A DNA stretch of 64,000 nucleotides from an uncultured Bacilli bacterium. GTDB lineage: Bacteria > Bacillota_I > Bacilli_A > RF39 > UBA660. The notes under the pieces were generated by a model. It was not told where the DNA came from. It made no database searches and saw nothing but the letters and a program-made list of their open reading frames with translations. Location: contig CAKOYV010000007.1 of NCBI GenBank assembly GCA_934131005.1, positions 6,689 to 70,688 of the forward strand. Direction: 5' to 3'. Positions 1,234-32,614 of the stretch are shown piece after piece. Positions within the stretch are counted from its first letter, which is position 1, and each line of letters begins with the position of its first letter. The translations under genes were made by a program, and so were the position numbers.

Positions 1234-1878
1234 CTATTTATTCATTTGGGTTGCTGATAGCTTAACATTTAATTGAATACAAGGAGTTTCTGGGTTGCTT
1301 TTAGTATATTGATAAGCCTTATTTCCCCAATAGGTATCATCTTTATCTTTTAGGTTACCATTATCATCTACAGTTTCGTAAGGCCACGTTACAGTTACTA
1401 AAAAACTTGCTACTCCACCTTTACCACTTATAATATCTTTATCTGAAGATATTTTTATTTTAAAGGGGTAATTTTTATTTATTGTATCCTCTAGTTCTGA
1501 TGAGGTCATTGACCCCTCACTAACTTCATAAGTTTTATCAAATATTCTTATACTAACTAATTCATAATAAAGCTTAGCAGATACTTCTCCATCATTTGTT
1601 ACTGTAACTTTTTGTTCATTATCCTTCATTCCTGGATAGATTTCATCTATTTCAAATTTAATATAATCACTCATAAGCTGATTATCAAATCTAAATGATA
1701 CATTCCAAGCTTTGACTTTGACATCAATATCACTATCTATCTTGTTCATATAAATAAACCAAGCAAAGGAATTACTAACAAGAAGAAGTGCTATAAATAG
1801 TAAATAGCTAAGTTTAAATCTTTTCTTTATTACTTTACAAATGGCTTTTAACACTTTATTCTCTTTTATTTTTTTCAT
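1234..1878 (-). CDS. Small secreted TasA/camelysin-like protein with SipW-cognate-type signal peptide (cassette 4 substrate)
   Basis: N-terminal K-rich region, hydrophobic core, then SNSFAWF motif resembling TasA/CalY GT(W/F)A(A/F)F. C-terminal beta-strand motif VTWPYETVDD...CIQLNVKL is shared with the other family members here. Start overlaps the upstream SipW-like gene by 1 nt (ATGA). Confidence 0.5.
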   Translation of the reverse strand: MKKIKENKVLKAICKVIKKRFKLSYLLFIALLLVSNSFAWFIYMNKIDSDIDVKVKAWNVSFRFDNQLMSDYIKFEIDEIYPGMKDNEQKVTVTNDGEVSAKLYYELVSIRIFDKTYEVSEGSMTSSELEDTINKNYPFKIKISSDKDIISGKGGVASFLVTVTWPYETVDDNGNLKDKDDTYWGNKAYQYTKSNPETPCIQLNVKLSATQMNK

Positions 1879-2441
1879 TAATTTTTCTTTTCTTTTTCGT
1901 GGATTATATCTATCACTTCAAGAAATATCATTACTGCAAAAGGAACAAAAATAATGAAATAAAAGCCATATATATTATTTACCAATTTACTAAGCAAACT
2001 TAAGATTAATAGTTTTTTAGCAACCACTCCATATATTTGATTTTCTGAGACAACTGGATCTTCTATGGTATTAGCAATTCCCTTGGTATGAAATTCTAAT
2101 TCATTACCTTTTTTTGCTATTTTAATCACTTGGTGAGTTACTATTTTCCCTTCAAATGTTCCACTTTTTCCCATATAGACAATATCATCACCTACTTTTA
2201 TCTCACTAGTGGGTATTTTTTTTGATAGTAACATATCCCCTACTTGATATTTTGGAACCATACTTTCTGTTATAATTGTAAAGACGCTATATCCACCAAC
2301 GGTTACTTTATTGTTAGATATTCTTTGTGTAAAAATAACACTTACAATTAGAACTATAAATAAAATTGTTATTGCTTTTACTATTTTATAGATAATTCTT
2401 AAATATTTATTACTTTTTATTTTATTTATTGTATTTTTCAT
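1878..2441 (-). CDS. SipW-like type I signal peptidase (archaeal/eukaryal Sec11-type), paralog 4
   Basis: N-terminal TM helix, TESMVP (SipW SGSMEP-like catalytic Ser), GD motif, VTHQV (catalytic His), C-terminal TM helix. 187 aa, typical SipW size. Confidence 0.6.
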   Translation of the reverse strand: MKNTINKIKSNKYLRIIYKIVKAITILFIVLIVSVIFTQRISNNKVTVGGYSVFTIITESMVPKYQVGDMLLSKKIPTSEIKVGDDIVYMGKSGTFEGKIVTHQVIKIAKKGNELEFHTKGIANTIEDPVVSENQIYGVVAKKLLILSLLSKLVNNIYGFYFIIFVPFAVMIFLEVIDIIHEKEKKN

Positions 2442-2462
2442 ACTTCACCAACCACATCTATT

Positions 2463-3572
2463 CTATATCTCTATTTTTTCTATTTTATTTAAATATTTTT
2501 TTATATATCTTGTATAAATATCTATAATTTTTCTATTACTTACTACTTGTTTATATTTTATTTTTCCATATTGCATAGAAACTAATCTTTTTAATTCTTC
2601 TTCGCTAATATTTTCATTTAATTTCATTAGTTCTTCTATCATATTATAAGTAATTTTAGATGTTACTTCTTCTTTTTCTTCAATACTTAATTCTTCATTA
2701 TTTAACTTATTCATAATTAAATAATTTAAAAGAAAAGTTTCATCAAAGTTGTGTTTTAAATTTCCTTTATCTTGATAGTTCTTTTTCTCTTTTTTTATTT
2801 CTGGCTTTTTCATTACTTCTTCTTGCAGATAATTCCATAACTTTTCAGCATATTGAAAATTTACATTTTTTAAGATTACATTTGTTTTCTTTATAGGAGA
2901 TGTCACTAGTGCAACATGGAGTTTAGATAAAGTTTTATACACTTCACTGCTAGTTAAATCTGATATTTGTAATTCTAATTTTTCTATTCTAGTTTTGATA
3001 TCTAATTCACTATTTTTAGATGACTTATTATCTAGTTTTGAATCTAGTTGCATTGACATATTTACTTTTTCTTTACCAATAGTTGTAGTAGCATTATACT
3101 CAATTAGTTTGCTATCTTTAACTTCTCCAGGGATTATTCCATCTTGTTTTTTCCTAGCAATAAAGCCTTTCATATTTTGAATTAAACTATAGATAAAACG
3201 ATTTTCATAAGTATTAAAACTTTCTTCTTTATTTATATTTAGTATTTTTGATGGTCTTACATTTCCTGTTTTTTTATCATAATCTTGAATTAAGTTTGTA
3301 TTTCTTGATAAGTGTTTAATACTTTCTACCGTAACTCTTCTTGCTAGTTCTATTTTTACAATATCTTCTTCATTTACAATAAAGCGATTGGGATTTCTTA
3401 AAATGTTGTCTAGATAATATATTGTATCTTCCATTCTTTCTATCCATTCTAAGTTGTTATCAACTTTTTCATAATCACTCTTGACATTTACGGTAGATTG
3501 AACACTTTGTTGAAAGTTTTTTATTTTTTTTTCATCTGTTTTTTGATATAAATTTATGATATCTAAGCCCAT
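2463..3572 (-). CDS. Coiled-coil protein encoded immediately downstream of the McrB-family AAA+ gene (McrC position); no clear nuclease motif seen
   Basis: 369-aa ORF starts 19 nt after the stop of the 3591..5111 gene. K/E-rich heptad-like C-terminal half. No unambiguous PD-(D/E)xK motif was identified by eye. Confidence 0.45.
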   Translation of the reverse strand: MGLDIINLYQKTDEKKIKNFQQSVQSTVNVKSDYEKVDNNLEWIERMEDTIYYLDNILRNPNRFIVNEEDIVKIELARRVTVESIKHLSRNTNLIQDYDKKTGNVRPSKILNINKEESFNTYENRFIYSLIQNMKGFIARKKQDGIIPGEVKDSKLIEYNATTTIGKEKVNMSMQLDSKLDNKSSKNSELDIKTRIEKLELQISDLTSSEVYKTLSKLHVALVTSPIKKTNVILKNVNFQYAEKLWNYLQEEVMKKPEIKKEKKNYQDKGNLKHNFDETFLLNYLIMNKLNNEELSIEEKEEVTSKITYNMIEELMKLNENISEEELKRLVSMQYGKIKYKQVVSNRKIIDIYTRYIKKYLNKIEKIEI

Positions 3573-3590
3573 TTAATCAGCTTCTTTCTA

Positions 3591-5111
3591 TTATGTTAAT
3601 TTTTTTAATCTTAACAAATATTCTTCACATTCTTTCATTTTTCCTTTACCAAATGTTTTATCTAAGAATTCAATATAGCCATCGATTTCATCTCTTATAT
3701 AGGATACATTTAATTGTTCAAATTTTCGTAATACTTTTCTTGCTAAGAAGTAATCTACTCCATCTACTTCTTCTCCTCCACAGGCTACATAAACAGGAAC
3801 GAATTTTTTCATGTGAGCTACTATTCTGTTACCAAAAGCTATTCTGAAGTGTTTGATAACATAGTCATCCATTACTTCTATTTTATCTAGGGTATCTTGA
3901 CTAATTGGATTATTATTAATTGCATCTTGAAATAATTTATCTAGATAAGTATAATTAATATCTTGAGCATCAACATCTTCCGGTTCAAACACTTGTCCTT
4001 TATCATTAATATCAAGAGGCATTGCTCTATCATATACTTTATCAGTTACCATAAATGTTGAATCATCATTATTAATGGTTCCTATATACCACATATTAGG
4101 TGGTATTTTTAATTTACCATCAACAATATTTTTGGGATCATTCTTCCAACTAGCACTTACTAATTCAACAATCCATTCATCTTTATTGGGCATTTCTAGT
4201 ATAGATAACATTTCCGCAAAATAATACTCTACTCTAGAAATGTTCATCTCATCCAGAATAACTGTATAAACATCATCTGTATATCCTGCTAAATACATTT
4301 CTTTTAATACTTCTGTTTCATTAAACTTTTTAGTAAATTCATTGAAATAACCAAATAATTCAGTTCTATCTCTCCATGATGGCTGAACAGATGCTACGCA
4401 AGAGTCATGTTTTAAAAATTTTCCCCAAGCATATGCTAAAGATGTTTTACCTGTTCCAGATATACCTTGTAAGATAACTAATTTAGTAGAAGCTAAGGCT
4501 GATATGAATAGTCTAATCATCTCTGTTTTATAATAAAGTTTTAAGTGAGAAGCTGAAAAATTTCTAAAATTTTCTACTAATTCAGGTAGCGTAAAATTAT
4601 TATTATAATTTTTTATTTTATAGTTAGCAAAAGCTTCATCAAGAGAATGTAATTTAGGAAAACGAATTCCTTCTCCATCTAGTGCTGCATCTTTATCTTT
4701 ATCTTCTTCAGTACTCTCTTCTCCTGGTTTTAATCCCAAGTGAGAAACTTTCATTGCCAAAATACTTTCTTTTTCTTTCATTAAACTGGATACTTCATTA
4801 TTTAAATTTGCTACTTCTTCTAATAAATCTTCTTGTTCTACTATTGTCTTTCTGAATCTTAAATATTTTCTGATTAAGAAGAATATTATTAAAAAAATAG
4901 ATAAAACTAAAACAATGGTTAAAACAATAGCAAGAATAACAAATACCCATTCTGGGCCATTAAAATCATCTTTATAAAAGTTAATGATTTTAATATATGC
5001 GGATATATTAAATATTTCTTTTATTCCATTTACTAATCCAAAGAAAATTGTTTTTATTCCTGAAAAAAACTGCATTAAAAACTCATATAAAAATCTTAAG
5101 AATGTCTGCAT
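3591..5111 (-). CDS. Membrane-anchored McrB-family (AAA_5/MoxR-like) AAA+ GTPase/ATPase
   Basis: N-terminal TM helix (WVFVILAIVLTIVLVLSIFLIIFFLI) followed by coiled coil. Walker A VILQGISGTGKTS. McrB-type Walker B / sensor ILDEMNISRVEYYFAEMLSILE (compare McrB IIDEINRANLSKVFGE...LE). IGTINNDDSTF...VYDRAMPL (compare McrB IGTMNTADRS...ALRRRF). Confidence 0.65.
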   Translation of the reverse strand: MQTFLRFLYEFLMQFFSGIKTIFFGLVNGIKEIFNISAYIKIINFYKDDFNGPEWVFVILAIVLTIVLVLSIFLIIFFLIRKYLRFRKTIVEQEDLLEEVANLNNEVSSLMKEKESILAMKVSHLGLKPGEESTEEDKDKDAALDGEGIRFPKLHSLDEAFANYKIKNYNNNFTLPELVENFRNFSASHLKLYYKTEMIRLFISALASTKLVILQGISGTGKTSLAYAWGKFLKHDSCVASVQPSWRDRTELFGYFNEFTKKFNETEVLKEMYLAGYTDDVYTVILDEMNISRVEYYFAEMLSILEMPNKDEWIVELVSASWKNDPKNIVDGKLKIPPNMWYIGTINNDDSTFMVTDKVYDRAMPLDINDKGQVFEPEDVDAQDINYTYLDKLFQDAINNNPISQDTLDKIEVMDDYVIKHFRIAFGNRIVAHMKKFVPVYVACGGEEVDGVDYFLARKVLRKFEQLNVSYIRDEIDGYIEFLDKTFGKGKMKECEEYLLRLKKLT

Positions 5112-5122
5112 TTCATCACTTC

Positions 5123-6079
5123 CTAAATTGCTATATAATCATTATTATCTACTAATTCTTTTAATTCTCCATTAAAAAAGATATTAGTAAAGTAATCTGT
5201 ATTTCTACCCTTTATCATTATATAGTCTTCATATTTATTAATTATAAGTCCAAATGAATATCCTTCTTTAATTAAGGAACATATCTCTTCTTCATGACTT
5301 AAGAATTCAGCTGGACTAATAGAAAGAATTATATTTTCTTTGATAATATCTGTATTAAATATTTCTTTAAATTTATTTTTTCTAGAGATAGTTTCTAATA
5401 ATTTAGGAGAGAATTCTACTAAATATTTCTTCTTAAAGTTACCTTTTATAATATTTTTTAAGATTAAACTACTAACTAAATAATATTCTACTAATAATTT
5501 ATTTACTGCTACTATTGATTCTGTTTTTACTTTATCAATAGCGTACTCACTATAAAGATTAGGAATAGAGATATTATCATTTAAATATACAATATAGATA
5601 GATGCATTTCTAATTTTCTTGCAGGTTATATAAAAATCATTAGAAGAAGTTTTTTTTAAGTACTTTTCTTTTCTATGCCAATCGGATAGTACTTCTTTTT
5701 TAAAGTTAGAAACAAAATCATCATCATATATTCCTAATTTTTCCTGCCTTATTTTATTTAGTTCTATAGCTTCTTGTTGAAGAGTTTGTTTACCTTTATA
5801 TTTTTTTACACCATCTAGATAATAAAGCATTTTAAATAATTCTAAAATAAATTTGGAAACATTACTTGAATTATTTAGATAAACTTTCTCTAGAGCATTA
5901 TTAAGAGTTGCTTCAAGAGTGCTTTTATTTGCTATTTCTTCATTATAATATCTAATATTTGCATATTCTTCTATATATTGTTTAAATGTGTCTTTCTTAA
6001 AATACTTACCCATAATCATCTTAGTATAAACTTCTAAGTTATTTAAAGAAAAATCTACATATTTTGTTATAATATCCAT
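5123..6079 (-). CDS. Hypothetical cytoplasmic protein (318 aa) in the SipW/TasA-like operon
   Basis: Long ORF, tightly spaced with neighbours (12 nt to next gene). No confident motif. Confidence 0.45.
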   Translation of the reverse strand: MDIITKYVDFSLNNLEVYTKMIMGKYFKKDTFKQYIEEYANIRYYNEEIANKSTLEATLNNALEKVYLNNSSNVSKFILELFKMLYYLDGVKKYKGKQTLQQEAIELNKIRQEKLGIYDDDFVSNFKKEVLSDWHRKEKYLKKTSSNDFYITCKKIRNASIYIVYLNDNISIPNLYSEYAIDKVKTESIVAVNKLLVEYYLVSSLILKNIIKGNFKKKYLVEFSPKLLETISRKNKFKEIFNTDIIKENIILSISPAEFLSHEEEICSLIKEGYSFGLIINKYEDYIMIKGRNTDYFTNIFFNGELKELVDNNDYIAI

Positions 6080-6095
6080 TAAAATCTCCTTCTTT

Positions 6096-7076
6096 CTAAC
6101 TATATTCTACTTTAATAATAGAAGTATTATCTGTATTTGGATAAGTATAATTTATGGTTGTGTCTTTTTTATAGAATTTAACTTGCTTACTAGATAGAGC
6201 TTCAATAGAAAAGGTAATTGCTGTTACATATTCATAATTTCCAATTTTTTTAGTAGTGGTGTTTATTGCACTTAAATAGGATTCGTCTGTCATATCTAAA
6301 AGTACTTTTTTTGGATCAAAAGTCAATGTAATGAGAGCTGATTTACATTTGTTTTTTTCTTCATCAGTTAAGGATAAATAAGTTGAAATATCTATTTGGG
6401 AATTAACTTTATATTCCCCAAATGCTTCTTTAACTGTGTAATAATCAAGAGTATTTGTTATTTTAGTTTCTAAATAAGGACTTCCCTTTTTATCATTAAT
6501 TTCATAGGATAGCCCATAATAGCCTACGATTAATTTAAAGGTACCCGTTATCTTTTTTCGATATGGTGATGTAGAGATTGCCTCTACCTTAAGAGTCACA
6601 CTATCTTTATCATGGAGCGTTGTTGATGTTGGAATTGTTATTACCACGCTAAAGCTATCTTGGTTGCTACTAGATGGTATCATACTTTTTTCTTTATCAT
6701 CTTTAATACTACAGACAACATTATCTGAACAAGAATACTTAATATTATAATAAATATCACTGGTACTTTTTACTTTGCTATTACTTAAACTATTCATATT
6801 AAAGGTCACTTCATATTGTCCTACTCCTGACCAGTTAGTCATTTCAATATTAGCTCCTTTGCTAGACAATTTATCACAGTTAAAATAAAATCCTTTTGTT
6901 GATAAATAATAATCTTTAATATCTAAATAGGCATATTTCGCATAACTAGCACTACTCCCTATTAAAATAATCAATATAATATATATAACGATTGCTTTAA
7001 ACTGCCATTTCCCATTTTTTTTAATTATTAATATTTCTTTTATTTTGGATAATTTTGTTTTGATTTTTTCTAACAT
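6096..7076 (-). CDS. Secreted protein with SipW-cognate-type signal peptide (cassette 3 substrate)
   Basis: N-terminal TM/hydrophobic core IVIYIILIILIGSSASYAKYAY, with the (S/T)YA(K/W)(Y/F) motif. Located 4 nt downstream of a SipW-like gene. Confidence 0.5.
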   Translation of the reverse strand: MLEKIKTKLSKIKEILIIKKNGKWQFKAIVIYIILIILIGSSASYAKYAYLDIKDYYLSTKGFYFNCDKLSSKGANIEMTNWSGVGQYEVTFNMNSLSNSKVKSTSDIYYNIKYSCSDNVVCSIKDDKEKSMIPSSSNQDSFSVVITIPTSTTLHDKDSVTLKVEAISTSPYRKKITGTFKLIVGYYGLSYEINDKKGSPYLETKITNTLDYYTVKEAFGEYKVNSQIDISTYLSLTDEEKNKCKSALITLTFDPKKVLLDMTDESYLSAINTTTKKIGNYEYVTAITFSIEALSSKQVKFYKKDTTINYTYPNTDNTSIIKVEYS

Positions 7077-7080
7077 ATAA

Positions 7081-7560
7081 TTAGCACCTTAATTCTTTTA
7101 AGATAGAATATACTTCGTACAAAAATGCTACTAAAATTGGAAAAATAATAATTACTAAATATCCCCATTTAGATTCAAGAATTGATAAAAGATTTCCAAG
7201 AAAAGGGATAACAATACTATTGTTACTAATACCAATTAAGAATTTTTTATCAACAACTGTATCATCAATAACAACACTATCTTTATTAATGCTATTAATT
7301 GTTCCCGTTTGAATATAATATTTTTTTCCTCTAGATACATAATAAAATACTTTCATTTTTTCTTTATAAGTACTTTTATTATTCACAATAACTAAATCTC
7401 CTTTATTATAAGTTTCAGTTTTATCATTTTTTACAATTATCAAAGTATTATTATTAAATTCTGTAGTGTTATAGTCATTGTATGCTAATAAACATATTGT
7501 GGTAATTACTGCTACTACAGTATAAATAATAATTATAATATGGCTAATTTTCTTTTTCAT
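7081..7560 (-). CDS. SipW-like signal peptidase paralog 3, apparently degenerate (catalytic Ser/His motifs not found)
   Basis: Same architecture as the other SipW paralogs: N-terminal TM, GDLVIV box, C-terminal TM YLVIIIFPILVAFLYEVY. Lacks the S-M/L-E/V-P and T/Y-H motifs present in the other three. Confidence 0.45.
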   Translation of the reverse strand: MKKKISHIIIIIYTVVAVITTICLLAYNDYNTTEFNNNTLIIVKNDKTETYNKGDLVIVNNKSTYKEKMKVFYYVSRGKKYYIQTGTINSINKDSVVIDDTVVDKKFLIGISNNSIVIPFLGNLLSILESKWGYLVIIIFPILVAFLYEVYSILKELRC

Positions 7561-7762
7561 AACTACTATACCTCTCCTACTTTCTCCTATTTAAGTATAG
7601 CACATCTATACTAACATTGTAAATAAAATATGCTATGCAAGTAAAAAAATAAATTTTCACATAGATTTTTATTGAAAGTGCACAATTAATGTGCAATAAG
7701 TTTTAGAAACATATATAATATCTTCTTAAGCAATTTATTTGTCATTAAGGAGGTATTGAAAA

Positions 7763-8640
7763 TGACAAATTATTCTCATTTGTCTTATGAAGATAGAAAA
7801 AAATATTGAAGATGGATTAAATGAAAATAAATCCATAAATCAAATTGCTAAAGAATTATGTAGAAATCATTCTACACTCTTAAGGAAAATAGATAGAAAC
7901 AAAAAACATTTGGAACCATCCATCAACCTAGAATAATTATAAAATTAATCATCCTGATATTTTGGATTTCAGCAAAAGCTCTTTTTATCGTTATATTAAA
8001 AATGGAATTTTTGAATTGGTCTTTTAGATTTTCTGAGAATTGTTAAATATAAAAAAAGAAAAAAATCAAGCCAAAGAAGAACAAAAAAAGAACGTGAAAT
8101 ATAGATACTGTTGAAAGTTTACAAATTGTTTCCTTACATTACTTTGAAGAAAGTTTAAATTCATGCTTATATTTAAGTTAGAATTCCAAACAACTGATAA
8201 AGTAACAAGAATTTTTAAAGTATTATAAACTCTTATTCCTTTAGATATTTATAAAAGTTTATTTCAAATTATTCTTACTTACAATAGTCACGAACTTTTT
8301 GATGTTAGTAATATTGAATGTATTCATTCAACTGGTAAATATGTTCCTCATCTATTTTTGGGTAATTCGCAAGCTTCTAGTCAAAAAAGTTTCATTGAAA
8401 AAAATCATGAATTCATTAGATATATTTTACCTAAAGGTCCTCTTTCAAAAATATTACTCAAGAAGACTGTAATTTAATTATGAATAATATTAATTCATTA
8501 TGTAGAGATTCATTGAATAGCAAATCACCTTATGAAGCAATGCTATTCTTATGTGATGAAGATATATTAAAACTATTAAACTGCCATTATATTGAACATG
8601 ATAGTGTTAATTTATCAAATAATTTATTAAAACAAAAATA
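7763..8640 (+). pseudogene. IS30-family transposase remnant (multiple frameshifts/stops)
   Basis: MTNYSHLSYEDRKKY* / IEDGLNENKSINQIAKELCRNHSTLLRKIDRNKKH matches the IS30 N-terminal HTH (M.Y.HLT.EER..I......S...IA..L.R..ST..RE..RN). Later fragments NIDTVESLQIV (DDE region) and SLNSKSPYEAML (IS30 C-terminal ...R.CLG.KTP.E) appear in different frames. Confidence 0.5.
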
Positions 8641-8724
8641 ATTATAACTCAAACTATATTTATTCTTACGGCAAACAAATTGTCATAAATCCAATACTAT
8701 TTAACAAATCAAAGACACCAGTTT

Positions 8725-9309
8725 CTAATTATCAACAATTTTACTAGAATCAACATTTAGCTCAACTAATTCTATATTATCTTGATAAATAGCATCTTCA
8801 TCACTTTCATTAAAATAAATTAGTAAAGTATATGTATTTACCTTGGGTGTAGAAAAATATAATTTTTCTTTATTAAAAGTAAATTCTTGAAAATAAGTAC
8901 CGTCATCATCTTTTTCTATTACACTATTGTTATCATTAATTAAATTTACACTACTACTATCTCGATAATCACTATTTAAATACAATTTATATTGTAGTGG
9001 TAAATTTGTAGTAGTTCTAATTTTTAGAACATACTCAATATCAACATCACTTATCTTACTTTCTTTTTGATTAGAAATAGTAAAATTATAGACATATGGC
9101 TCGCTTCTTGGTACTAAATCACTTATTTTTATACTTTTATTTAACTTTCCAACTTCTAATAGATAAAAAGCTATACTAGTATCTACATTTCCTATTCCAG
9201 ATGATTGATATTTAGAAAAAGTTACCGGAAGAAATTTAATCAAGATTAATAAGAATAAAAACAAAATGTTAATTTTAGAAATAAGAAGAAATTTCTTTTT
9301 ACTAAACAT
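8725..9309 (-). CDS. Small secreted TasA-like protein (cassette 2 substrate)
   Basis: N-terminal signal-like hydrophobic segment with TFSKY motif. C-terminal LLIYFNESDED...IELVELNV resembles the family C-terminal motif. Lies immediately downstream of the SipW 9321..9911 gene. Confidence 0.45.
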   Translation of the reverse strand: MFSKKKFLLISKINILFLFLLILIKFLPVTFSKYQSSGIGNVDTSIAFYLLEVGKLNKSIKISDLVPRSEPYVYNFTISNQKESKISDVDIEYVLKIRTTTNLPLQYKLYLNSDYRDSSSVNLINDNNSVIEKDDDGTYFQEFTFNKEKLYFSTPKVNTYTLLIYFNESDEDAIYQDNIELVELNVDSSKIVDN

Positions 9310-9320
9310 AATATCCCTCC

Positions 9321-9911
9321 TTATTTATCTTTTAAAATAGGTATTTCTATTTCCTCTTCTTTTTTCTTTTTAATTCTTTTTTCTTTCTGTTTTTGTATTT
9401 TTTTTCTTTTAGTTTTATTATTATAGGAGAAAGTAAAACTAAATAATACTAAAGTAATAGTTAATAACGTAAACACCTTTGGAGTCATTAATACCTTTTT
9501 CCATATCCCAAATCTAGGTATTACTAAGACCACCTTTCCTAAAACATTCTCTTTTTTTACTTTTGCATCTTTGCTGTTATTAGCATCCCCCTTAGTAGTT
9601 ATTGTCTTACTGTCTATTTGAATTACTCTATGGGTTATAAACTCTTTATTTAAATTATAAGTTATTATATCTTTTTCTTGATAAGTACTATTTAATTTAA
9701 CAATTACTAAATCATTTTTATAAACAGCTGGCTCCATAGAACCACTAGCAATTTCAAAATAAGTATAACCAAAAAGACTTACATAGTCTTTTTTTTGAAT
9801 ATTTAAAGAAATATAACTATAAGTCATAAAAATAATTATTATGCTTATCAAGAATATTAAAATGTAGGTAATAATATTACCTATTTTATCTATTACTTTC
9901 ATCTTTATCAT
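9321..9911 (-). CDS. sipW: SipW-type type I signal peptidase (canonical motifs), paralog 2
   Basis: EIASGSMEPAVYKNDLVIV (SGSMEP catalytic Ser box), FITHRVIQ (His box), N- and C-terminal TM helices, K-rich C-terminal tail. 4-nt overlap with the upstream gene. Confidence 0.7.
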   Translation of the reverse strand: MIKMKVIDKIGNIITYILIFLISIIIIFMTYSYISLNIQKKDYVSLFGYTYFEIASGSMEPAVYKNDLVIVKLNSTYQEKDIITYNLNKEFITHRVIQIDSKTITTKGDANNSKDAKVKKENVLGKVVLVIPRFGIWKKVLMTPKVFTLLTITLVLFSFTFSYNNKTKRKKIQKQKEKRIKKKKEEEIEIPILKDK

Positions 9912-10507
9912 CCTTTAGCACTATATTGATATACATTAACATGAATAGGCAAATTAATTTTAGTATCAGCTTTAGAACCTAATTCATAATCAGCTAAGTT
10001 ACTTTCTTCATTATCATTATCTTCCCAAACTAATTCAATTTTAATATCATACTTTTCTTTGTTCTTTATCTCTTTAAGATGAGCTATTCCTTGATAAGTA
10101 TTTTCACTTACCAAAGAAAATTCATGCCCTCCCACTTCACTAACAGATGTAACTTTAATTCCTGATTTGTTAAAAACTTCTGTATCAATTACTATTCTAT
10201 ATAAAAAAGAAGTATCTGTTGTCGAAGGATCAATTATGACATCAAAACTCCCAACTGAACCTGGGGCTCCCTTACCTTCTCTAACATGATTAGCATTACT
10301 CCAATTAATACTCGTCAAATCAAATTCTTCATCTTCTGTCGTTAAAGACGTTAGATAGGTATCTCCTACTCTGATTTTCCACCTAGCAAGTGCTATTGAA
10401 GGCGAATCAGTGATACCACTTTCAAATAACGAGTATGTTTGAGATAGCTGAAAAATTAGAACAAAAAGACCTATTAAAGTCATGGTGAAAAGAAAATACT
10501 TTTTCAT
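9908..10507 (-). CDS. Small secreted TasA/camelysin-like protein (cassette 1 substrate)
   Basis: Signal peptide ending QTYSLF. ARWKIRV motif shared with the 25029..25664 protein. C-terminal ELVWEDND...INLPIHVNVYQ family motif. Confidence 0.5.
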   Translation of the reverse strand: MKKYFLFTMTLIGLFVLIFQLSQTYSLFESGITDSPSIALARWKIRVGDTYLTSLTTEDEEFDLTSINWSNANHVREGKGAPGSVGSFDVIIDPSTTDTSFLYRIVIDTEVFNKSGIKVTSVSEVGGHEFSLVSENTYQGIAHLKEIKNKEKYDIKIELVWEDNDNEESNLADYELGSKADTKINLPIHVNVYQYSAKG

Positions 10508-11044
10508 CTAGGCCTCTTTTAAATTGCGTTTTACTTCAAGAATGAATTCATATAATTCATATAAGAAGATAAATAAAACTGGTAGTATGATTACAAGCAA
10601 GAATATCCATCTTGATGATAATATTTTTAAAATACTTCCTATTTTATGATAAATAACAGTGTTTTTAGTTGAACCTATTACATATTCACTAGAATATTCA
10701 TAATTTCCTTCAATTTCATAAGTTGTTTCTGTATTAGTAATTTTTCTTTTAGAAATAACTTTTGCTAAATTAACAATAACAGTATTTTTTTCTTTATTTT
10801 GTTCATAGAAAAAGATAGAATCATTAGAGGTAATATCATCATTACCTGTATCTGTTACTACTAATAAATCACCCTTTTTATAGGCAGGTTCCAGTGAATT
10901 ATCCGAAACAATTATAAAGCTTTTATCTCCTATTTCAGTTATTCCATATTTATTATAATTTAATAAGCATATTGTCATTAATATTACAACTAACATGTAA
11001 GGAATTAAGATGATTCCTCCTAGTATCTTTAATATTTTTTTCAT
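10508..11044 (-). CDS. SipW-like type I signal peptidase, paralog 1
   Basis: N-terminal TM, SDNSLEP (Ser box variant), GDLLVV, VIYHK (His), C-terminal TM. Abuts the downstream substrate gene. Confidence 0.55.
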   Translation of the reverse strand: MKKILKILGGIILIPYMLVVILMTICLLNYNKYGITEIGDKSFIIVSDNSLEPAYKKGDLLVVTDTGNDDITSNDSIFFYEQNKEKNTVIVNLAKVISKRKITNTETTYEIEGNYEYSSEYVIGSTKNTVIYHKIGSILKILSSRWIFLLVIILPVLFIFLYELYEFILEVKRNLKEA

Positions 11045-11084
11045 TATTACACCTTCTATTCTACAAATTTAGTATACCATAGTT

Positions 11085-12620
11085 TTAATTACTTGGCAAT
11101 TGAATTATTCCTAATTTATTTACATTAACCAAAAATAATATATCACCATAGTCTAGATTTAATTCTTCCATATATTCTATTATTTGTAGTTTTAAGATTA
11201 TATCTATAAAATTAGATAAATTTGAATTAATATCTGTATCTGTAATTTTATAATTAATTAATCGATAGCGATCAGCTATTACCCTAGGAATATTTATTTT
11301 TTCTTTTACCGTTATATTATTTAATAGCTGATATTTTATAGAAATAATTTTATCTTTAGTATCTTTTATTGCTTTATTAATTTCATCATTAGTACTCTCT
11401 TCCATATTATCTTCAAATAGTTTTCTTGTATAAGTATAGTACGATAATAAAAAATCTAATATTTCATAATATGTTATATTATCATTCATAAGAGAAATTT
11501 TTTCTTTTACTTTATTATAATCTAGCAAATAATATTTTTCTTTTAAATCATCTAAAAGATTATTTATTTTTAGGAGAATCATTTCTGCTTTTTCTTGTTT
11601 TTTTATTTTTAGTAAAAATCGATATTTTTTCTCTTCTTTAAATAATTTTTTTTCTTCTTTTTTTATTTCTTTTAATAAATTTTTATAGATATTTTTTTCT
11701 TTATCTTTTTCTTGATAATTTTTTATAAAGTCATCGATTAAGAACTTTATTTCTAAGTAAAATTGATATTCTATTAGACAGTTATACAAACCAAAGATAG
11801 ATTTATTATCTTCCTTATCAAAAAAGGTATTTATATATTTTTCTTTATCAAGAAAGTTATTTATATATTCTTCTTTTTTTTCTTTGCTATAAGATTTAAT
11901 ATCTAATTTTTCTTTTAAGAATAGATTAATTATATTTCCTTTTGTTTTAATTTTATTTTCTTTAGCTTGATTATATTTTTCTAAATAAGTATTTTTTAAT
12001 TCAAGAGATGTATTTTTTTTATTTATATAATACTTAATAAACTTTTTTTCATAGTAATAATATAAATATTTAAAGTTAAGGCCTATATAAAATATAATGT
12101 TAGGACATTTCCAATAGATTTCATTAAAGCATTTTTGTAATTTATTGCTTTTTATGTTATCTATATTTTCAAGAAAACATTCCATATAAATAGAAGTATA
12201 AGGACCATATTTAAAGTCCTTTTTTTCTAATTTAACGCCCACTTTAGAAAAAATTTGAATTGCTTTAGATATATCTTCATTTAAGTTAGTAAAATCATCT
12301 TTATAGAAGTGAATAATTTCATAGATATAATAATCTAATTTAGATTTTTCGTATGGAGTATTCCATTCGTTTTGTAATTCTATTTCTTCTTTTATTTTAT
12401 CTAAAAGTACATTGTCAAAAGAGATGAAATTTGATGATTCATAAAATTTATTTGCTCTTATATTTATTTCTTTTAAAACATCTTTTTCTAATGATTGATA
12501 GTGTTCTAATTTATCGTTTAGATATTCTAAGTATTTTGCTTTGTTTTTTTTATTATTTTTAGGCATTATTTCTAATGTTTCTTTTAAAAAATTAAATTCT
12601 TTACTTAGTTCATTCTTCAT
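11085..12620 (-). CDS. Hypothetical K/E/N-rich coiled-coil protein (about 511 aa); first gene downstream of the giant surface-protein gene
   Basis: Long ORF. Probable ATG start at 12620 (MKNELSKEF) with AGGAG 8 nt upstream; the ORF track extends to an upstream TTG at 12650. Confidence 0.45.
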   Translation of the reverse strand: MKNELSKEFNFLKETLEIMPKNNKKNKAKYLEYLNDKLEHYQSLEKDVLKEINIRANKFYESSNFISFDNVLLDKIKEEIELQNEWNTPYEKSKLDYYIYEIIHFYKDDFTNLNEDISKAIQIFSKVGVKLEKKDFKYGPYTSIYMECFLENIDNIKSNKLQKCFNEIYWKCPNIIFYIGLNFKYLYYYYEKKFIKYYINKKNTSLELKNTYLEKYNQAKENKIKTKGNIINLFLKEKLDIKSYSKEKKEEYINNFLDKEKYINTFFDKEDNKSIFGLYNCLIEYQFYLEIKFLIDDFIKNYQEKDKEKNIYKNLLKEIKKEEKKLFKEEKKYRFLLKIKKQEKAEMILLKINNLLDDLKEKYYLLDYNKVKEKISLMNDNITYYEILDFLLSYYTYTRKLFEDNMEESTNDEINKAIKDTKDKIISIKYQLLNNITVKEKINIPRVIADRYRLINYKITDTDINSNLSNFIDIILKLQIIEYMEELNLDYGDILFLVNVNKLGIIQLPSN

Positions 12621-12914
12621 TAATATCCAACTCCTGCTTTTCTTTTTCAAGATATGATAAAATTTCTTTTATAGTACTATATGTTTCCAAAATTTCTTCA
12701 TTAGATAGTTCTTTTATTTTTTGATTCATGATATCACCCATCTTCTATTTATTTAATTATAACGAATTTTTTTAAAATTGAAAAGTACTTAATTAAAATA
12801 TTTTGGAATAAATAGTTTAACTAAGTTGTAAAAATAAATTCCACTTTGAAAGAATAAGTTACATCTTTGGTTAAAAAAGTATACATTTAATTGATATTTT
12901 TTAAAATGTAGACA

Positions 12915-12988: not shown

Positions 12989-15900
12989 TTATTTTATAAT
13001 TATATATTTTACTACTTCTCCAACATAAGTGTTATTATCATATAAAAGAAATTTGATTTGGTATGTACCTGTTTTTAATTTATCTTTTAGATTTAATATA
13101 TATTGGAAGCGACTGTTAGGACTATCCATTACTAAATATTCATTTGCTGTGTTAGAGGTTTTTAAAGTATCTGTAACATAATCTTGTAAATTTACTTTAG
13201 TATAACTATATTTATAAATATCTGTATAGGTTCTTCTATATAATGCTACACGAATGCTAGGTTTCTTTAAGTTAGATTCATATTCTAAATTAAAATCTAA
13301 CATTTTACTTTTATTTGAAGTTCTTCCCGTTTTAGCATCTACATAATTATCAGCATCATCCATAGAAACTGATAAACCAAAGTTTTCATTGACAATAGTT
13401 ACTTCTTTGCTGATAGTAGTGGATGGCGCTAAGCCATAATAAATTCCATCTGCCGATCCAAACGTTTCTATTTTTAAGTGATATTCTCCACTAGGGATAT
13501 TACTGTTTGTTGTATCTATAGTAATTTTACTTGATACATTAGCAACCGATTCTGCAATATTAAATCTTACCGTTCCATCTTGTCTAGGAAAATAATTAAC
13601 ACCTTCATAGATGAATTTTGTACCCAACAAGGTTGCTCCGTTGACTAAATTATCTTCACTGTCATATAATGATAGTCTTATTCCTAATTTTTGGTTATAG
13701 AAATTAGTATCAATAATATTTATACTTCCTGTTTTTTGTTGGTCAAAATTAGTTATTACGTTTAATTCTACAGAAGAACCTACGTATATGGTATCATTAC
13801 TTAAAGTAGCTTCTGCATCAATAATAGCATCTTTTCCTTTATATAAGTTGTAAGTCATTTTTTGTTGAGCAATATCTAATACTGGTATTACAGGATTGTC
13901 ATTTTTATCTCTTAATTCCATTAGTAAGTTTTTCTTCAGGACAGTAGCATCTATATTTGCTTCTTTCAAATCTACATTAAAGATAAATTCTTCTTCTGCT
14001 TTTTTATTGGTACTATCATAGTACCTATTATTAGCATCACTATCACTATAAGTATTATTAGCACTTGAACTACCCATTTTAATAAATCTAGAGAACGGAT
14101 AACTGATTTCTCCTTCGGTATAAAGTTCATTTAGGCTATTTTCATAATCTTCTTTACTAATTACATAATAATAATATTCTGGTTTATCACTACTAGCAAA
14201 GTCAATCATTGTAATTTTAGTATTTTTAGGTAAGGCATAATTAGAAACTAGACTTCTGTAATAGCCATCTTTATATGGAGTAAAATTACTTTTTTTAAAT
14301 AGCGAAAAATAAGTACTGAAGGTACTGGTTGAAGTAATATGAACATTACTATTAGCGAACATTTCATATTGATCTCCTACCGTTATAGCTCCTTCATAGT
14401 TATCTCCATCATATAATGCTGATGATAAATTTACTTGAATGTTTACTCTTTGTATTTTACTATTTAAATCATCAATAGGTGTTGATACCATCAAAGAAAT
14501 TGTAACACTACCTAAATCAGCAGAAACATTTAAGTTTTTAGAGTGATATAGATAGAAAATAAAACTTGGTATCGTGGAAGAATTTTCACTTTTATAGGTT
14601 GTAGTTCCTTTTACTTCACTTCCCTTTTGAGTGATAAATTCTGTATCACCTTTGGTAATCCATCCGTTTGTTCCTGTTTTTATGGATAATCCAAAATTTT
14701 TGTTGGCTTCTTCTGTAGTTTTTGCATATCTTGGAATATCTTCGCTTGAAAGTAGTTCTATATTACTAGATAAGTTATCGTAATTAACTCCTAGAACATG
14801 AAATTCTGTATTAGGTTGATAATAGTTAAGTAATTGTAATTCATATGTTCCCAGAGTAGAATATTTAGATGCTGTTAGAGATAGGTCAATTACTTCAACT
14901 GACTCTCCTACTACCCATCTATAGTAGATGGTATCATTAGGTGTTGGCTCTATATAATCTTGTTTTATTGTAGTTCCATTTTCTTCTGGATAATTGGTAT
15001 AAAAGCCATCTTTATAATAGTTATGATTTTCTTTATGTTGCCCCATGACATAGCTTCCAGTTGAGAAATGATAAATTTCTGAACCACTAATCGTATCACC
15101 ATAATTGTATTTATCTGAATATAGGGCTGTTGTTATTTTTCCATTTCTATCTTTAGTAAACATTCCGAAGAATGTCATTCCACTTACTTCTCCATAGGTT
15201 GCTAATGATTCATCATCAGAGATGTTTAGGTTTTTGCCTTCTAGCATGTAAATACGATTTTCACCATTCTTGGCCACTTTTTGGTTTTCTTTGTCAATGG
15301 TTACTTCGACATTTTTTTCTTTTCCATCAATATCAACTAGACTGGAATATTTTTCTAGAAGGTTTGTTCCTTTATTTAAATATAATACTGAGCCATTCTT
15401 TAGTTTTAGATGTTTTATTCTACTAAAGGTAAATAATTCATTTTTATATTTGTTAGTTCTATCAGTTGCTCCTAATAATTCTATGGCACTGTTATTTAAG
15501 GTAACTACATCTGCTCTTTGGATTGAGACGTTTGTTTTGTAATTATCTCCATTACCATAATTATTGATATTTACATAGCTATAACCACCTGATGATGAGG
15601 CATTTCCACTACCCAAGATTGAGCCTGAAATTATATAATTGGTGTGCTTAGAAGCATCTATATTTATGTTAATTCCTTTTGTAACACTAATAAATTTAAA
15701 GTCATAGTCGACACTACCACTGGCATTTGCTTCTCCTCCTCCAAAAACAGTCCCTCCTATTATGATATCATCTTTTTGGTAATCAGTAGCATCTTCAATG
15801 GTATTAATTCCAATATTCACGTAAGTTTCTCCATAAACAACCGAGGTATTCGCTCCACCATAGACGTTTCCTAAGATAGTTGCTCCTGCTATATTAACAT

Positions 15901-18900
15901 AGCTTTTAGCACTATTTTTATTGGTACAAGTTATTGCATCACCTGATGACGTAAAGTCATTTTCACATCCTGTAGCAGCAGCATTTCCTCCTCCAAATAG
16001 GTGTTTTGTGATTACTGTTTTTCCAGATACATCTACTTCATTTCCAGTTACAACGACAGCTGTTTTACCGTTGCCACCGGCATGAACACTTTCTCCTATG
16101 GTACTATCGGTAATTTTGGTTATAGCATTACCTAGAACTGCTCCATCATTGCCACCTCCATAGGTATTTCCTGAGATAGTGGCATTTTTTATTAAAACAC
16201 TTGTATCTCCATCTACTAAAGCAGCATTTCCTCCTCCATAGATATCTCCTTTAACTGTAGTTTTATCTAAGATGTTTAGAGAAGTGTCTTTTAATATACT
16301 AGCCTCATTCCCTCCTCCATAGATAGCTTTTAGAATAGTAGCATTAGTAGTTGTAACGTTAGGTTTATTTGTAACTGCTTTGTTTCCTCCTCCATAGATT
16401 GAACCATAACTTCCACTAGTTAAGTTAATATTACTAGTTTTAGTTAATCCACCTTCATTATTTCCACCATACATATTATTAACATATAAATCATTATAAT
16501 AAATTGTTTTAGTATCTGTTCCATCTGAATTATGACCTACTAATATATAACCTACAATTTGAAAATCAGAATAGTCTACGTAAGAATGAATACAAAATTC
16601 AAAAGAATGAGTTGAATTTGCTGATAAAGCATTTGCACCATACCATTGATTTGTTTGGTTGGAATGAAATACACCATTAATTTCTTCAACATTCGTTCCT
16701 GACCAGTTAGAGTCAAAAACAGCATCAGTGGTTATTAAGTAAAAATCCCAATTAGTATAACTTGTTGTTGAAGCATTGTGAAGAGTAACATTAATTTTTT
16801 CACTAGATTTTATTCCTAATGGATTGGTTTGGTTTACAGTACTAGTATCGAAAGAAACATCTGCATATAAGTTACTATTACTTTCTAATTCTTGAGGTGT
16901 ATTTTTTATATTAGTAGTAGTAACATTTCCTAATACATTAGAACCTCCAAAAATATTTTTTATATATCCTTTATTTAAATTTAAATGTGTAGTAATAACA
17001 CCAGCACTTTTTCCTCCTCCAAATAAATAATCTATTTTTCCATGAATTATATTTAGATTTGAGGTAGTTGTTTCTGCTTCTAGTCCTCCTCCATAAATGG
17101 AAGTAATAATACCACCTGTTACTGTTACATTAGAGTTTACGGTTGTTCCTCCCAAATTATTTCCTCCATAGACACTGTCTGCTATGCCGTCATTTATGTT
17201 GATATAACTAGTATGAACAGTTCCTTTTTGGTCAGATCCCCCAAAAACATTGGTAGCTCTGTTATTTAAATTAACATTAGTTGCAGAAACGATATCCGTC
17301 TCTCGACCGCCTCCATATACATCGGTAACATCTCCTCCATCTATTGATACATTACTTGTATTAGTTGTTCCTCCAATGTTATTTCCACCGTAAACATTTG
17401 TTACTTTACCTGATTTTACATTAACATTACTAGTTGTAACATCTCCACTTGTATTAGACGCACCAAATAAGTTAGTAACTGTCCCTCCATTTAATAAAAC
17501 ATGACTGATATCAACTTTTGCTTGATTACCTCCGCCATATCCATTAGTGGTAGTTCCTCCATAAAAATTAATGTTTGGTTCGCTTACTTCTGTTTGATTT
17601 CCTCCTGCATAGGCATTTGTTATTTTTCCTCCATGAACATTTACAGTTACACTTCCATTTGGAGTTCCCCTTTGATCGGATCCGCCATAAACATTGTCAA
17701 TTATTCCACCTTTAATATCAACAGCGACATTACCTAGAACATAAGGTGTATAAGTACCATTACCTTCTCCTCCTCCAAAAACGCTATTTATCGTTCCAGA
17801 TAATACTTCAATATTCGTATTTTTAGAAGAAATGGTTGTTGAATTACTTGCTCCGTTAACTGTACCAAAAGCACTTCCTCCATAGATAGCATTTTCTATT
17901 TTTAAGTTTTCATTACTCTCATTTTCTATCCCTGTTATAATTTTTACTTCTCCTGTTACAAAAGTACCTGGACTTGATGATGATTGATATCCACCTTCTC
18001 CTCCTCCATAACAAGAAGTTCTGACTGTACCTGATAAGAGATTTAGAGCAACATCTCCATAAACTGTTCCTTTAGTTCTTGAACCTCCATAGATAGATCC
18101 TTCTACCAATCCTCCATTTAGAGTTATATTTACTTTAAATTCTTTACTAGAGGTACTTGCTCCATTATTATTTCCCCCACCATAAACATTTCCTTTTATA
18201 GTACCTCCTAATAGAGAAATATTGCTATAATTTGAATTACTGCTACTATTAATTCCAGTAGCCCCGTAGTTTCCTCCTCCATAGACATTTCCTAAGATAG
18301 TCGCGTTAGAATCTACAATAATTGTTGAATTATCATTAGTCCCAATTGAATCAGTACCTGATTTACCATTACCAATCCCAAAGACTGATCCTGCTTCAGC
18401 ATTCCACAGTTTAGTTCCATTATTTACATTATCTTCCTTACCAATAACAGCATTTCCTCCTATATAGATAAATGAACTACCTGATAATTTACCATCTCCA
18501 TCAGAACCTATGTAACCATTAGAGCCTCCAAAAATTTGATAATTAACAACTCCACCAGTTACTGCTATGATTCTATTTCCATAAGTGGTACTAAGTCCCG
18601 CACCTCCTACTATTGCATCAACTTCTCCTCCTGTTATATACATATATATATCATTTAGACTATCTCGATTATCACTAGAAGTTGGTCCCCCTATTAGATT
18701 ATAAATCCATCCCCCTTCAACTTTAACTTTTTTTGGAGCATAATGATCTCCATATCCTCTACCACCAACATAGATACCTGTTGCATAATCTGATTTTCCT
18801 GATCCAAATTTCCCACTTTTTACAACAAAATCAAAGATTAGACTAGTAGTTGTATTAGTGGCATAATAATTACCTCCACCCCAGCTTGATGAAGCACAAA

Positions 18901-20644: not shown

Positions 20645-21064
20645 TTACAACACCACTCTTTTATCTTAGATAAATTATAACACAGAATTTATTATTTTGG
20701 TATAAATATCACATATAATTCAAGAAAAAAGTAAATTTTTCATTTGTAAAATTAAGTTCCATTCTCAAATAATAAAAACTGAAATTTCACAACAACATTT
20801 TGATAAAAAAATAAAAAAACGCTTATTTAAGAAATTAAAGTAGAATGAACACTAAAAAGAAAACAATTAAAAAAAATAGTAATTATTTTCAGCTACAAAT
20901 AAAACTTTATATAATTAGGATAGTAGTTTATTTAAATATGACAATTGATGAAGTAACAATATATATTTAAAGTTATAAACGAAAAGCTATTCCTAATTTG
21001 AATAATATATTTAATAAATTAAACGTCTTTCATGAAAAATACTTATAAATTAAGTAGAAAACAG

Positions 21065-21385
21065 TTAAAGCAATTACCTATACAAAAGCATCTAGAACTT
21101 CTGATGATGAAACTATTGCAACAGAAAATTATTACATAATAGATTATCATATTAGTACAGAAAAATTAATAGACACTATAAAGAATCATTAGAATATAGA
21201 ATGTAGATTACATTGGAAATTAGATGTCATTTTAGATGAAAACCATTCCAGAAATAAAATTGAAAATTCAATAAATAATTTATCAATAATGTATAAAATA
21301 ATATTTAACTTAGCAAATTTGGATAATCCATTTAGTAAAGTACCATTACAAAGAAAATTAACTAGATATATGTTAGATTTTTAAA
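21065..21385 (+). pseudogene. ISAs1-family (H-repeat-associated) transposase C-terminal fragment
   Basis: TIATENYYIIDYHISTEKLIDTIKNH*NIECRLHWKLDVILDENHSRNKIENSINNLSIMYKII matches the ISAs1 C-terminal signature (ETRYYISS...HW.IEN.LHW.LDV.F.ED.SR.R...N.A.LR). Interrupted by a stop; no N-terminal part present. Confidence 0.55.
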
Positions 21386-21525
21386 AACATAGAAAAACTG
21401 ATATTTGAAATAATTCCAATTATCAGTTAACTTTAATTATTTTTAAGCGATTGCCATACCATTTTGATATCCGTTTTTACTTTAAATAAATTTCACCAAA
21501 AACTATAATCACTTATAAATATTTA

Positions 21526-22638: not shown

Positions 22639-23148
22639 TTTCTCTACTCCTTTTTATACATATTTGATTGAATAAATAGCAGGCCTATCTATTCCTATCA
22701 TAAAATGATGATATCATATTTCTCGACAAAATGCAACAAATTTTTCAGGATTTGATGGAAAAGTAATTATGATAAAATATTCAATTCAATTACTACAAAG
22801 AATATTGTCCTGGCGAAAAAAACACCAATGAAAGACTTACTGGAATAATAAGATATTTTATTCTTAAAAGTTCTTTAATAGAAAGTATTAAGTTATAAGA
22901 TTCCTCACGAAACACTTAAAAAAGATTTTAACAATAAACCATTTTTCTCCAAATTTAATCACTTCTAAATCCTTATATTCCATTTTTGAATTTTTAGCAT
23001 TTTTAAACACTATTTCATAAACGTATTCTCTCAAAATGATAAAATCATTCAAAATGAAACAATTTTATAAAGAAACTATATAAAAAATTGAATTTGGTTA
23101 TACCCCATGAAAACTAACATTTATTTTTGAAAAATTCCCTTAAACACT

Positions 23149-30992: not shown

Positions 30993-31054
30993 AACTGCAT
31001 AGCAAAATATTCCTGCAATTATTAAGCCAATTCTCTTTAATTTAAGACTTTTGA

Positions 31055-32555: not shown

Positions 32556-32614
32556 TGCATAACAAAATATTCCTACAATTATTAAGCCAATTCTCTTTAA
32601 TTTAAGACTCTTGA

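Follow-up and report, generated by a model that had tools for sequence, protein, structure and literature searches.

A gene cluster of paired signal peptidase-like and exported proteins with an McrB-like NTPase in an uncultured Bacilli bacterium, and its possible role in building a surface structure

The described systems nearest to the locus reported here include the tapA-sipW-tasA operon of Bacillus subtilis and the sipW-tasA-calY operon of B. cereus, in which, as in the present locus, a signal peptidase of the endoplasmic reticulum (ER) type is encoded beside dedicated substrates that have an aromatic residue at position P2′ of the cleavage site. The locus occupies one end of a 64-kb window (the whole stretch of DNA analysed, from contig CAKOYV010000007.1 of an uncultured Bacilli bacterium), where the initial annotation had noticed four SipW-like genes (here S1 to S4), each followed by a gene for a small secreted protein (T1 to T4). 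The unit that contains these four pairs is an 18-gene cluster of about 24.4 kb (1234–25664; coordinates are those of the window, whose proteins also served as seeds for classifying the ORFs of related loci), and beyond the pairs it encodes four more proteins with the signal motif described below, a 2551-amino acid repeat protein, an McrB-like nucleoside triphosphatase (NTPase) and an McrC-like partner. We put at about an even chance the proposal that the cluster carries out the processing, and probably the assembly, of a cell-surface structure of several subunits, for which a fibre is the likeliest form.

The Phe at P2′ of TasA is reported to make it a poor substrate for LepB, so that SipW acts as its dedicated peptidase (PMC10269814), and TasA-type β-sandwich subunits have been proposed to polymerize by donation of an N-terminal strand (PMC9674648, PMC10151520). 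The archaeal thread (Saci_0406) and bundling pili (AbpA), donor-strand filaments made from subunits with type I signal peptides, are also among the closest systems. The present cluster differs from the TasA operons in several ways: no Peptidase_M73/TasA homology is detectable in its proteins and its S genes are not SipW orthologues by model cutoff; as many as four peptidase paralogs occur in it, of which two are dead; its substrate-like proteins number eight or nine and fall into at least five families without sequence relationship; and it adds the McrB/McrC-like pair and the 2551-amino acid repeat protein. For the dead paralogs the nearest parallel is SipA/LepA of Streptococcus pyogenes, a non-catalytic signal peptidase-like protein that is essential for pilus polymerization (PMC4049620). 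SipA, encoded inside a pilus gene cluster, is like S1 and S3 a dead peptidase homolog and may be their functional analog, by analogy only, since SipA is of the P type (Peptidase_S26, with a Ser-Lys dyad) and works with a sortase, whereas the closest matches of S1 and S3 are of the ER/archaeal type; no sortase gene was seen in family scans of the cluster proteins.

The McrB-like component leads to a different literature. Bell et al. (2024, eLife 13:RP94800; PMC11090510) give one paragraph to a large clade of NxD-type McrB GTPases, which they name CoCoPALM, place next to predicted defence systems and defer to later work. A literature search found no follow-up paper describing CoCoPALM, and the text-form supplementary files of Bell et al. 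make no mention of it. Judged by its sequences, our locus fits the CoCoPALM description on three of five features. The two have in common an McrB-like NTPase, a DUF2357-containing McrC homolog that lacks a nuclease, and genetic linkage to signal peptidase family proteins. The N-terminal transmembrane segment and weakly FtsL-like region of our NTPase may correspond to the published fusion to an FtsB-like transmembrane segment and coiled coil. The published paragraph does not speak of peptidase-substrate cassettes, dead paralogs, a signal motif, a module of the Xa, Xb and giant-protein type, or a host lineage. The initial annotation did not recognize the locus as a described system, and this is right for the cassettes, but the McrB-linked class to which they belong already has a name (PMC11090510), though no published description. 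The pair also differs from McrBC type IV restriction systems, in that the McrC-like protein D369 lacks a PD-(D/E)xK nuclease and the N-terminus of the McrB-like protein C506 is a membrane anchor and not a DNA-binding domain.

Peptidase-like genes, their partners and the signal motif

All eight open reading frames (ORFs) of the four pairs are present on the minus strand as first annotated (Table 1), and they are tightly packed: S1 and T1 abut, S2 and T2 are 11 nt apart and S3 and T3 4 nt apart, S4 overlaps T4 by 1 nt, and T1 and S2 overlap by 4 nt, provided that S2 starts at 9911. This arrangement recurs widely. A scan of species-representative genomes with a T4 alignment yielded at least 100 relatives, and the 80 species loci that were analysed contain about 180 cases of a peptidase-like gene with a T gene directly after it (S4-T4 in 81, S2-T2 in 28, pseudo-peptidase-T3 in 47 and pseudo-peptidase-T1-like in 27), with median gaps of −4 to +2 nt.

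The S proteins are all homologous to SipW-class signal peptidase I. S2 and S4 (73.7 and 74.6 bits) exceed the 51.85-bit cutoff of the TIGR02228 model (sigpep_I_arch), while S1 (30.5 bits, E 3e-7) and S3 (10 bits) fall below it, and none of the four passes the 190-bit cutoff of the SipW equivalog model NF046067 (S2 63.3, S4 56.1, S3 23.0 and S1 20.7 bits); on these scores they are SipW-class relatives and not SipW orthologues. In blastp comparisons S1 groups with S3 (30% identity, E 3e-22) and S2 with S4. Catalytic states were read from an alignment of 190 S orthologues from related genomes. The S2 family keeps its Ser, His and Asp boxes (SGSMEP, ITHR and KGDANN) in 32 of 33 orthologues, and S2 is indeed the one canonical peptidase that had been picked out by its SGSMEP and ITHR motifs. 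In the S4 family, 83 of 84 orthologues have both the Ser (TESMvP) and the His (VTHR). In ER and archaeal signal peptidases Ser and His are essential, as is, in archaea, one of two Asp residues (PMC2913515), and since S4 retains both Ser and His it may be active. In the S1 family (54 members) and the S3 family (23) all three of these residues lack conservation, so S1 and S3 are best regarded as conserved pseudo-peptidases and not as variants. The loss of both catalytic boxes noted early for S3 is thus borne out across its family, but the reading of S1 as a catalytic variant with an IYHK His box is not, as IYHK aligns with the “IPRFG” segment that follows the Asp box. Of the four SipW-like peptidases originally listed, therefore, all are relatives of the class but only S2 and S4 both pass the model and keep Ser and His.

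Each of T1 to T4 begins with a predicted signal sequence consisting of an n-region, an h-region and then TYSLF, TFSKY, SYAKY or SFAWF. These endings correspond to the SipW-cognate type of motif claimed for all four partners, [ST][YF][AS]↓x[FY] (the arrow marks predicted cleavage), which is the pattern of the TasA cleavage site; the TasA sequence used for comparison is identical to that of PDB 8aur, whose mature start AFND places cleavage at TWA↓AF and fits the cluster motif. The same pattern, small residues at −3 and −1 and aromatic residues at −2 and +2, is present at the predicted cleavage sites of T1 to T4, DIV211, Xb and Xc, and the −3/−1 small-residue rule holds in six families. A strict form of the motif, [ST][YFW][ASG]x[FYW] within residues 11–80, is carried by 8 of 17 cluster proteins and by none of 34 other ORFs of the window. 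Across the families it is found in T4 (82/82), Xb (65/70), Xc (8/8), DIV211 (66/74), T3 (40/69; the T3 family consensus at this point is t.gRYiY), T1 (15/23) and T2 (14/29), as against 6 of 362 members of the non-exported cluster families. The enrichment in cluster proteins is far beyond chance.

T1 to T4 have no Pfam or NCBIfam family and no match to Peptidase_M73, TIGR04088, TIGR04089 or TIGR04090 at E ≤ 1, apart from a weak Ig-like_KY match (25 bits) for T2; Peptidase_M73 also finds nothing among 88 T4 relatives, and the T4 and Xb family profiles match no PDB sequence. A profile search of 1.84 billion representatives showed how large the T4 family is: 532 representatives match at E ≤ 1e-3, family members saturate the result, and the top 150 include no remote annotated relative. 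In the family A39, W40, YPGM, WPYE and DTYWG are invariant or nearly so. An AlphaFold2 model of T4 (predicted local distance difference test score 75) is a generic β-sandwich with two helices, in which residues 48–67, past the predicted cleavage site, are disordered. In both T4 and Xb conservation is highest in this N-terminal region after the predicted cleavage site, and the monomer models show it as disordered. T1 evolves fast (only five homologs in a word-index search, too shallow for a model); by hhalign its family matches DIV211 at 99.9%, and T4 matches DIV211 weakly (42%).

The original assignment of T1 to T4 as TasA/camelysin-like proteins thus finds no HMM or profile match behind it, and the fold of the T4 model is of a generic kind. 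TasA homology of the T and X families at the sequence level is unproven: hhalign comparisons with the verified TasA all have less than 1% probability, and only the last strand is aligned (sI.l.vKI.AtQ against SIKLQFSFEATQ). The C-terminal strand motif said to be common to the substrates fared better, as a strand ending in W/F, an acidic loop and a last strand ending in Q can be seen in the T1, T2, T4, DIV211 and Xb consensus sequences, Xa has the W/acidic-loop part, and the whole resembles the end of TasA, but it does not have statistical support.

Some T4-like proteins are longer. Pfam finds only DUF6273 among ten long T4 relatives, with P0374 and P0394 carrying it as a C-terminal domain, and in one locus a separate DUF6273 gene (L011, 3032–4270) lies just upstream of the cluster. 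In P0257 (456 amino acids) an S4-like peptidase with Ser and His boxes is followed by a T4-like protein in a single ORF, and P0265 (415 amino acids) has a T4-like C-terminal half behind an N-terminal part of about 214 amino acids; these two may be S4-T4 fusions, or frameshift artefacts at the 1–4-nt gene overlap.

Gene content, layout and conservation of the cluster

Over its first 25.7 kb the window has a G+C content of about 25% and carries a succession of genes on the minus strand. The range first described, 1234–12650, covers only part of the unit defined here, and it is unlikely that the four pairs make up a single operon, as had been supposed. T2 is parted from S3 by a 1.16-kb gap that contains an IS30-like transposase remnant on the opposite strand, and a strong terminator-like hairpin with a 13-bp stem (12941–12911) follows the giant gene and lies upstream of the pairs; because of these two features the pairs are probably not one transcription unit. 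The S1-T2 half and the S3-T4 half also sit apart in other species. An Rfam scan of the cluster found no riboswitch and no other family, and promoter scans were uninformative, their counts equalling those of shuffles in this AT-rich DNA. Use of genetic code 4 was considered and is unlikely, as the 2551-amino acid ORF and all other cluster genes are open under table 11.

The IS30-like remnant interrupts the cluster and is no functional part of it; an HTH_38 domain is called at the same place in a contig of the same species. In seven related species an Xb-like gene lies exactly at this position between T2 and S3. It may be that the remnant marks a rearrangement that relocated Xc370 to its present site, which is flanked by unusually long non-coding gaps on both sides (20644–21526 and 22638–23149).

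All 80 loci come from uncultured metagenome-assembled genomes (MAGs) labelled Bacilli, Tenericutes, Mollicutes or Firmicutes CAG, whose lineage, from the MAG names, we take to be RF39-like, and two sequences of about 1.26 Mb are among the relatives, one from a MAG assembled to chromosome level and the other a MAG contig. Proteins identical to T4 and S3 are encoded on many contigs, where the layout is unchanged. A core of pseudo-peptidase/T3-B318-C506-D369-S4-T4 is found in 67 of the 80 loci; 38 of these have the pseudo-peptidase and T3 directly, 18 have pseudo-peptidase-T1-S2-T2-T3, seven have the four-peptidase form with the Xb-like gene at the remnant site, and four are unresolved upstream. 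In nearly all 80 loci S4 comes directly after D369, and C506 has a pseudo-peptidase three genes upstream of it. On the other side of the core, 56 loci have T4, an opposite-strand DIV gene, Xa and Xb in that order, in most with the giant gene next. In the nearest other species the gene order at the site is GIANT-A521-S1-T1-S2-T2-Xc-polC, which gives two cassettes there and puts the Xc orthologue between T2 and polC. The arrangement in the window is therefore a permuted form of a conserved cluster. Even the most divergent T4 relative keeps a D-S4-T4-DIV core, and the core order persists while the sequences diverge to about 35% identity.

Rates of divergence differ among the components. Median identities to the window protein are 77% for C506 (82% mean column identity), the most conserved gene of the cluster, 55% for Xa, 52% for D369, 50% for S4 and 33–46% for the T, Xb and giant proteins; such a contrast between the NTPase, at 77%, and the exported parts, at 33–46%, would be expected if the subunits of a machine were exposed and evolved fast.

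C506 matches only Escherichia coli McrB in PDB (E ~1e-3, with the single sequence and with the family profile). A transmembrane segment at residues 54–80 and a conserved stretch, VEQEsLLEEV..LN.eV..LmkEKe, precede its NTPase domain; this region may form a coiled coil, and its FtsL-like match is weak (E 0.033, residues 61–116). The invariant “IGTINNDDST” of C506 can be read as NxD followed by D or as NxxD. In D369 the N-terminal half is strongly conserved, and its C-terminal half has no PD-(D/E)xK match and no conserved motif. B318, between T3 and C506 in about 70 loci, has no Pfam or PDB relative even when a 35-sequence family profile is used, and the idea that it is a degenerate EAL/cyclic di-GMP domain was rejected for want of any such match. 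A521 precedes S1 in the window, in loci L001, L041, L043, L044 and L086–L091, and in others, and has no family matches in HMM library scans.

The giant protein has an N-terminal h-region followed by T[YF][SG][DE]; Gly, Asn, Ser and Thr make up 42% of its residues, and it contains at least 24 copies of a 24–25-residue “VYGGGN” repeat. Xb348 has filament subunits as its best structural neighbours. Its paralog Xc370 matches TIGR04088 weakly (14.8 bits; cutoff 19), and that model matches 5 of 87 Xb relatives, all at E ≥ 0.024.

Table 1. Features of the cluster and of the sequence that interrupts it, in window order
Feature	Coordinates	Strand	Description
T4	1234–1878	−	214-amino acid exported protein, S4 partner; signal peptide end NSFA↓WFIY
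S4	1878–2441	−	ER/archaeal-type signal peptidase I paralog, in nearly every cluster locus
D369	2463–3572	−	McrC-like partner; N-terminal DUF2357 domain (Pfam E 2.4e-11)
C506	3591–5111	−	Membrane-anchored McrB-like AAA+ NTPase
B318	5123–6079	−	Core cytoplasmic protein
T3	6096–7076	−	326-amino acid exported protein, pseudo-peptidase partner; signal peptide end SYA↓KY
S3	7081–7560	−	Catalytically dead signal peptidase-like protein; transmembrane segments at both ends
IS30-like transposase remnant	7787–8641	+	Fragmented short ORFs (e.g., 7787–7936, 8480–8641) in the gap 7560–8725
T2	8725–9309	−	194-amino acid exported protein, S2 partner; signal peptide end TFS↓KY
S2	9321–9911	−	Canonical ER/archaeal-type signal peptidase I
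T1	9908–10507	−	199-amino acid exported protein, S1 partner; signal peptide end TYS↓LF
S1	10508–11044	−	Signal peptidase-like pseudo-enzyme
A521	11085–12650	−	Lysine-rich cytoplasmic protein heading the S1-T2 module
GIANT	12989–20644	−	2551-amino acid exported repeat protein; candidate adhesin or tip component
Xc370	21526–22638	−	Xb348 paralog (44% identity); signal motif STYA↓WF
Xb348	23149–24195	−	Candidate major fibre subunit; signal motif STYA↓WFT.NR
Xa237	24205–24918	−	Membrane-anchored; C-terminal W-EGDDPDC motif common to Xb (hhalign 85% over the motif)
DIV211	25029–25664	+	Divergently transcribed T1 paralog (hhalign 99.9%); signal motif DTYA↓KY

A candidate assembly pathway and its rivals

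Dedicated peptidase-substrate modules for a multi-subunit extracellular structure, the proposal of the initial annotation, seem to us still the best reading of the observed gene content, homologies, catalytic states, motif, coupling and synteny. The steps of cleavage, polymerization and motor action that we infer could run as follows. T1 to T4, DIV211, Xb, Xc and the 2551-amino acid protein would be exported with the cluster-specific signal ending [ST][YF][ASG]↓x[FY], in which an aromatic residue stands at P2′, the feature to which TasA owes its poor processing by ordinary LepB-type peptidases. S4, in nearly every locus, and S2, in some, would cut these signals, each being translationally coupled to one substrate, while the dead S1 and S3 would bind their partners without cutting them and might serve as holdases or assembly chaperones, comparable to SipA in streptococcal pili. 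The conserved N-terminal stretch freed by cleavage would be the donor strand that joins β-sandwich subunits, with Xb as the major subunit forming the shaft, the T proteins as minor subunits and the giant repeat protein as adhesin. At the cytoplasmic face the membrane-anchored McrB-like NTPase and its nuclease-less McrC-like partner may power or gate assembly. Taken to its full extent this would be an unstudied filament pathway of monoderm bacteria, in which paired active and dead ER-type peptidases deliver donor-strand subunits and an exapted McrB/McrC motor acts as energy source or checkpoint, and it would differ from the sortase, type IV, chaperone-usher and TasA routes; that complete picture is possible, but we regard it as doubtful.

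Several observations weigh against fibre assembly. No sequence or profile link from the exported proteins to TasA or to a known pilin was found, and blastp and family-profile hhalign detect no mutual similarity among T1 to T4. Of the two Asp residues that are otherwise conserved, S4 is missing the first, Ile standing in its place (KGIAN) in 61 of 84 orthologues, with acidic residues after it. AlphaFold2 continues the transmembrane helix through the motif, so that in these models the T proteins could be uncleaved anchors. Finally, McrB-like NTPases are not known to act in protein assembly, and the closest profile to C506 is that of a candidate phage-defence protein, PDC-M26A of PADLOC (E 5.6e-33).

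Three other explanations were weighed, each of them less well supported than fibre assembly. The uncleaved helices of the models are what would be expected if the cluster built a non-filamentous envelope complex or coat, with the T and X proteins as uncleaved anchors or a surface layer that holds the giant adhesin and with the peptidase-like proteins as scaffolds or as processing enzymes for some of them. The anchor-like Xa, which does not have the cleavage motif, would fit such a complex, as would the non-catalytic state of half of the S proteins and the generic nature of the fold matches, and aromatic residues are in any case common at the membrane interface of anchors. However, the strict retention of Ser and His in S4 and S2 argues for real cleavage, the −3/−1 rule is kept in its six families, and the structural neighbours of Xb point to filaments; we think an envelope complex unlikely. 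The locus might instead be an expanded tapA-sipW-tasA matrix operon of the Bacillus type, in which T1 to T4 are true TasA/camelysin homologs, each cut by its own SipW paralog. The aromatic P2′ residue and the placement of peptidase genes beside their substrates are what such an operon would have, but the failure of TasA models and profiles to find the T proteins, the NF046067 scores of the S proteins and the two dead paralogs are differences from it, and we consider this origin improbable.

The PADLOC match of C506 bears on the remaining explanation, a membrane-associated conflict or defence system derived from McrBC and related to CoCoNuT, whose secreted proteins and peptidases would be sensors or effectors, for example in surface exclusion. 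The position that Bell et al. assign to the McrB/McrC branch, beside predicted defence systems, would agree with it. But C506 is the only cluster protein that matches PADLOC, and no nuclease or other recognizable effector was found in the cluster proteins. Moreover, the cluster is syntenic, and not patchy, across 100 or more species whose genomes are about 1.25 Mb in size, and the 77% conservation of the NTPase is unlike that of fast-evolving defence genes. A defence role is accordingly very improbable in our estimation.

Neighbouring loci and significance for the host

Elsewhere in the window, three tandem paralogs on the minus strand (29679–34240) encode proteins with an ALK/LTK-like glycine-rich domain (PF12810, E 4e-25 to 9e-35). 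In every one of them a G9 tract lies some 33–41 nt past an ATG (plus-strand C9 at 31055–31063, 32615–32623 and 34172–34180), and the 64 kb contain no other run of eight or more G or C. With G9 the frame of the ATG ends after about 17 codons; G8 would open it into KSLKLKRIGLIIVG...LLVTSGTYAYLE, a signal peptide that includes GTYAYL, a motif of the SipW type. The three genes look like slipped-strand phase-variable surface proteins, all apparently “off” in the window sequence. Two plus-strand ORFs for 287 amino acids that lie 17 kb apart (43683–44546 and 60605–61468) are identical in their first 60 residues (MFKHIFTNNPDILKKF...) and appear to be a repeated gene, possibly a mobile one. A FemAB-family gene (38016–39197, plus strand) and a gene with a Germane (GerM-like) domain (34585–35559, minus strand) suggest that peptidoglycan cross-bridges are made, despite the “Tenericutes/Mollicutes” labels on related MAGs.

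Past T4, beyond the start of the window, a contig of the same species (L007, 11466–20645) has a C39-peptidase ABC exporter and genes for peptides of 47 and 53 amino acids, which looks like a bacteriocin locus. After the exporter come proteins of 1102 and at least 828 amino acids with N_methyl (type IV pilin-like) leaders and faint Big_3-type Ig-like matches.

If the fibre-assembly reading of the cluster is true, widespread uncultured gut bacteria with genomes of only about 1.25 Mb would devote some 2% of that DNA to a single surface apparatus, and one that brings together an unusual trio: peptidases coupled to their substrates, dead peptidases kept as likely chaperones, and an McrB-type NTPase moved from restriction to the membrane. 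It would also provide the first worked-out anatomy for the CoCoPALM class, so far a name alone, and a testable signal-peptide code in [ST][YF][ASG]↓x[FY]. For the bacteria themselves, the cluster would point to a likely adhesive organelle with which they meet host or partner cells.

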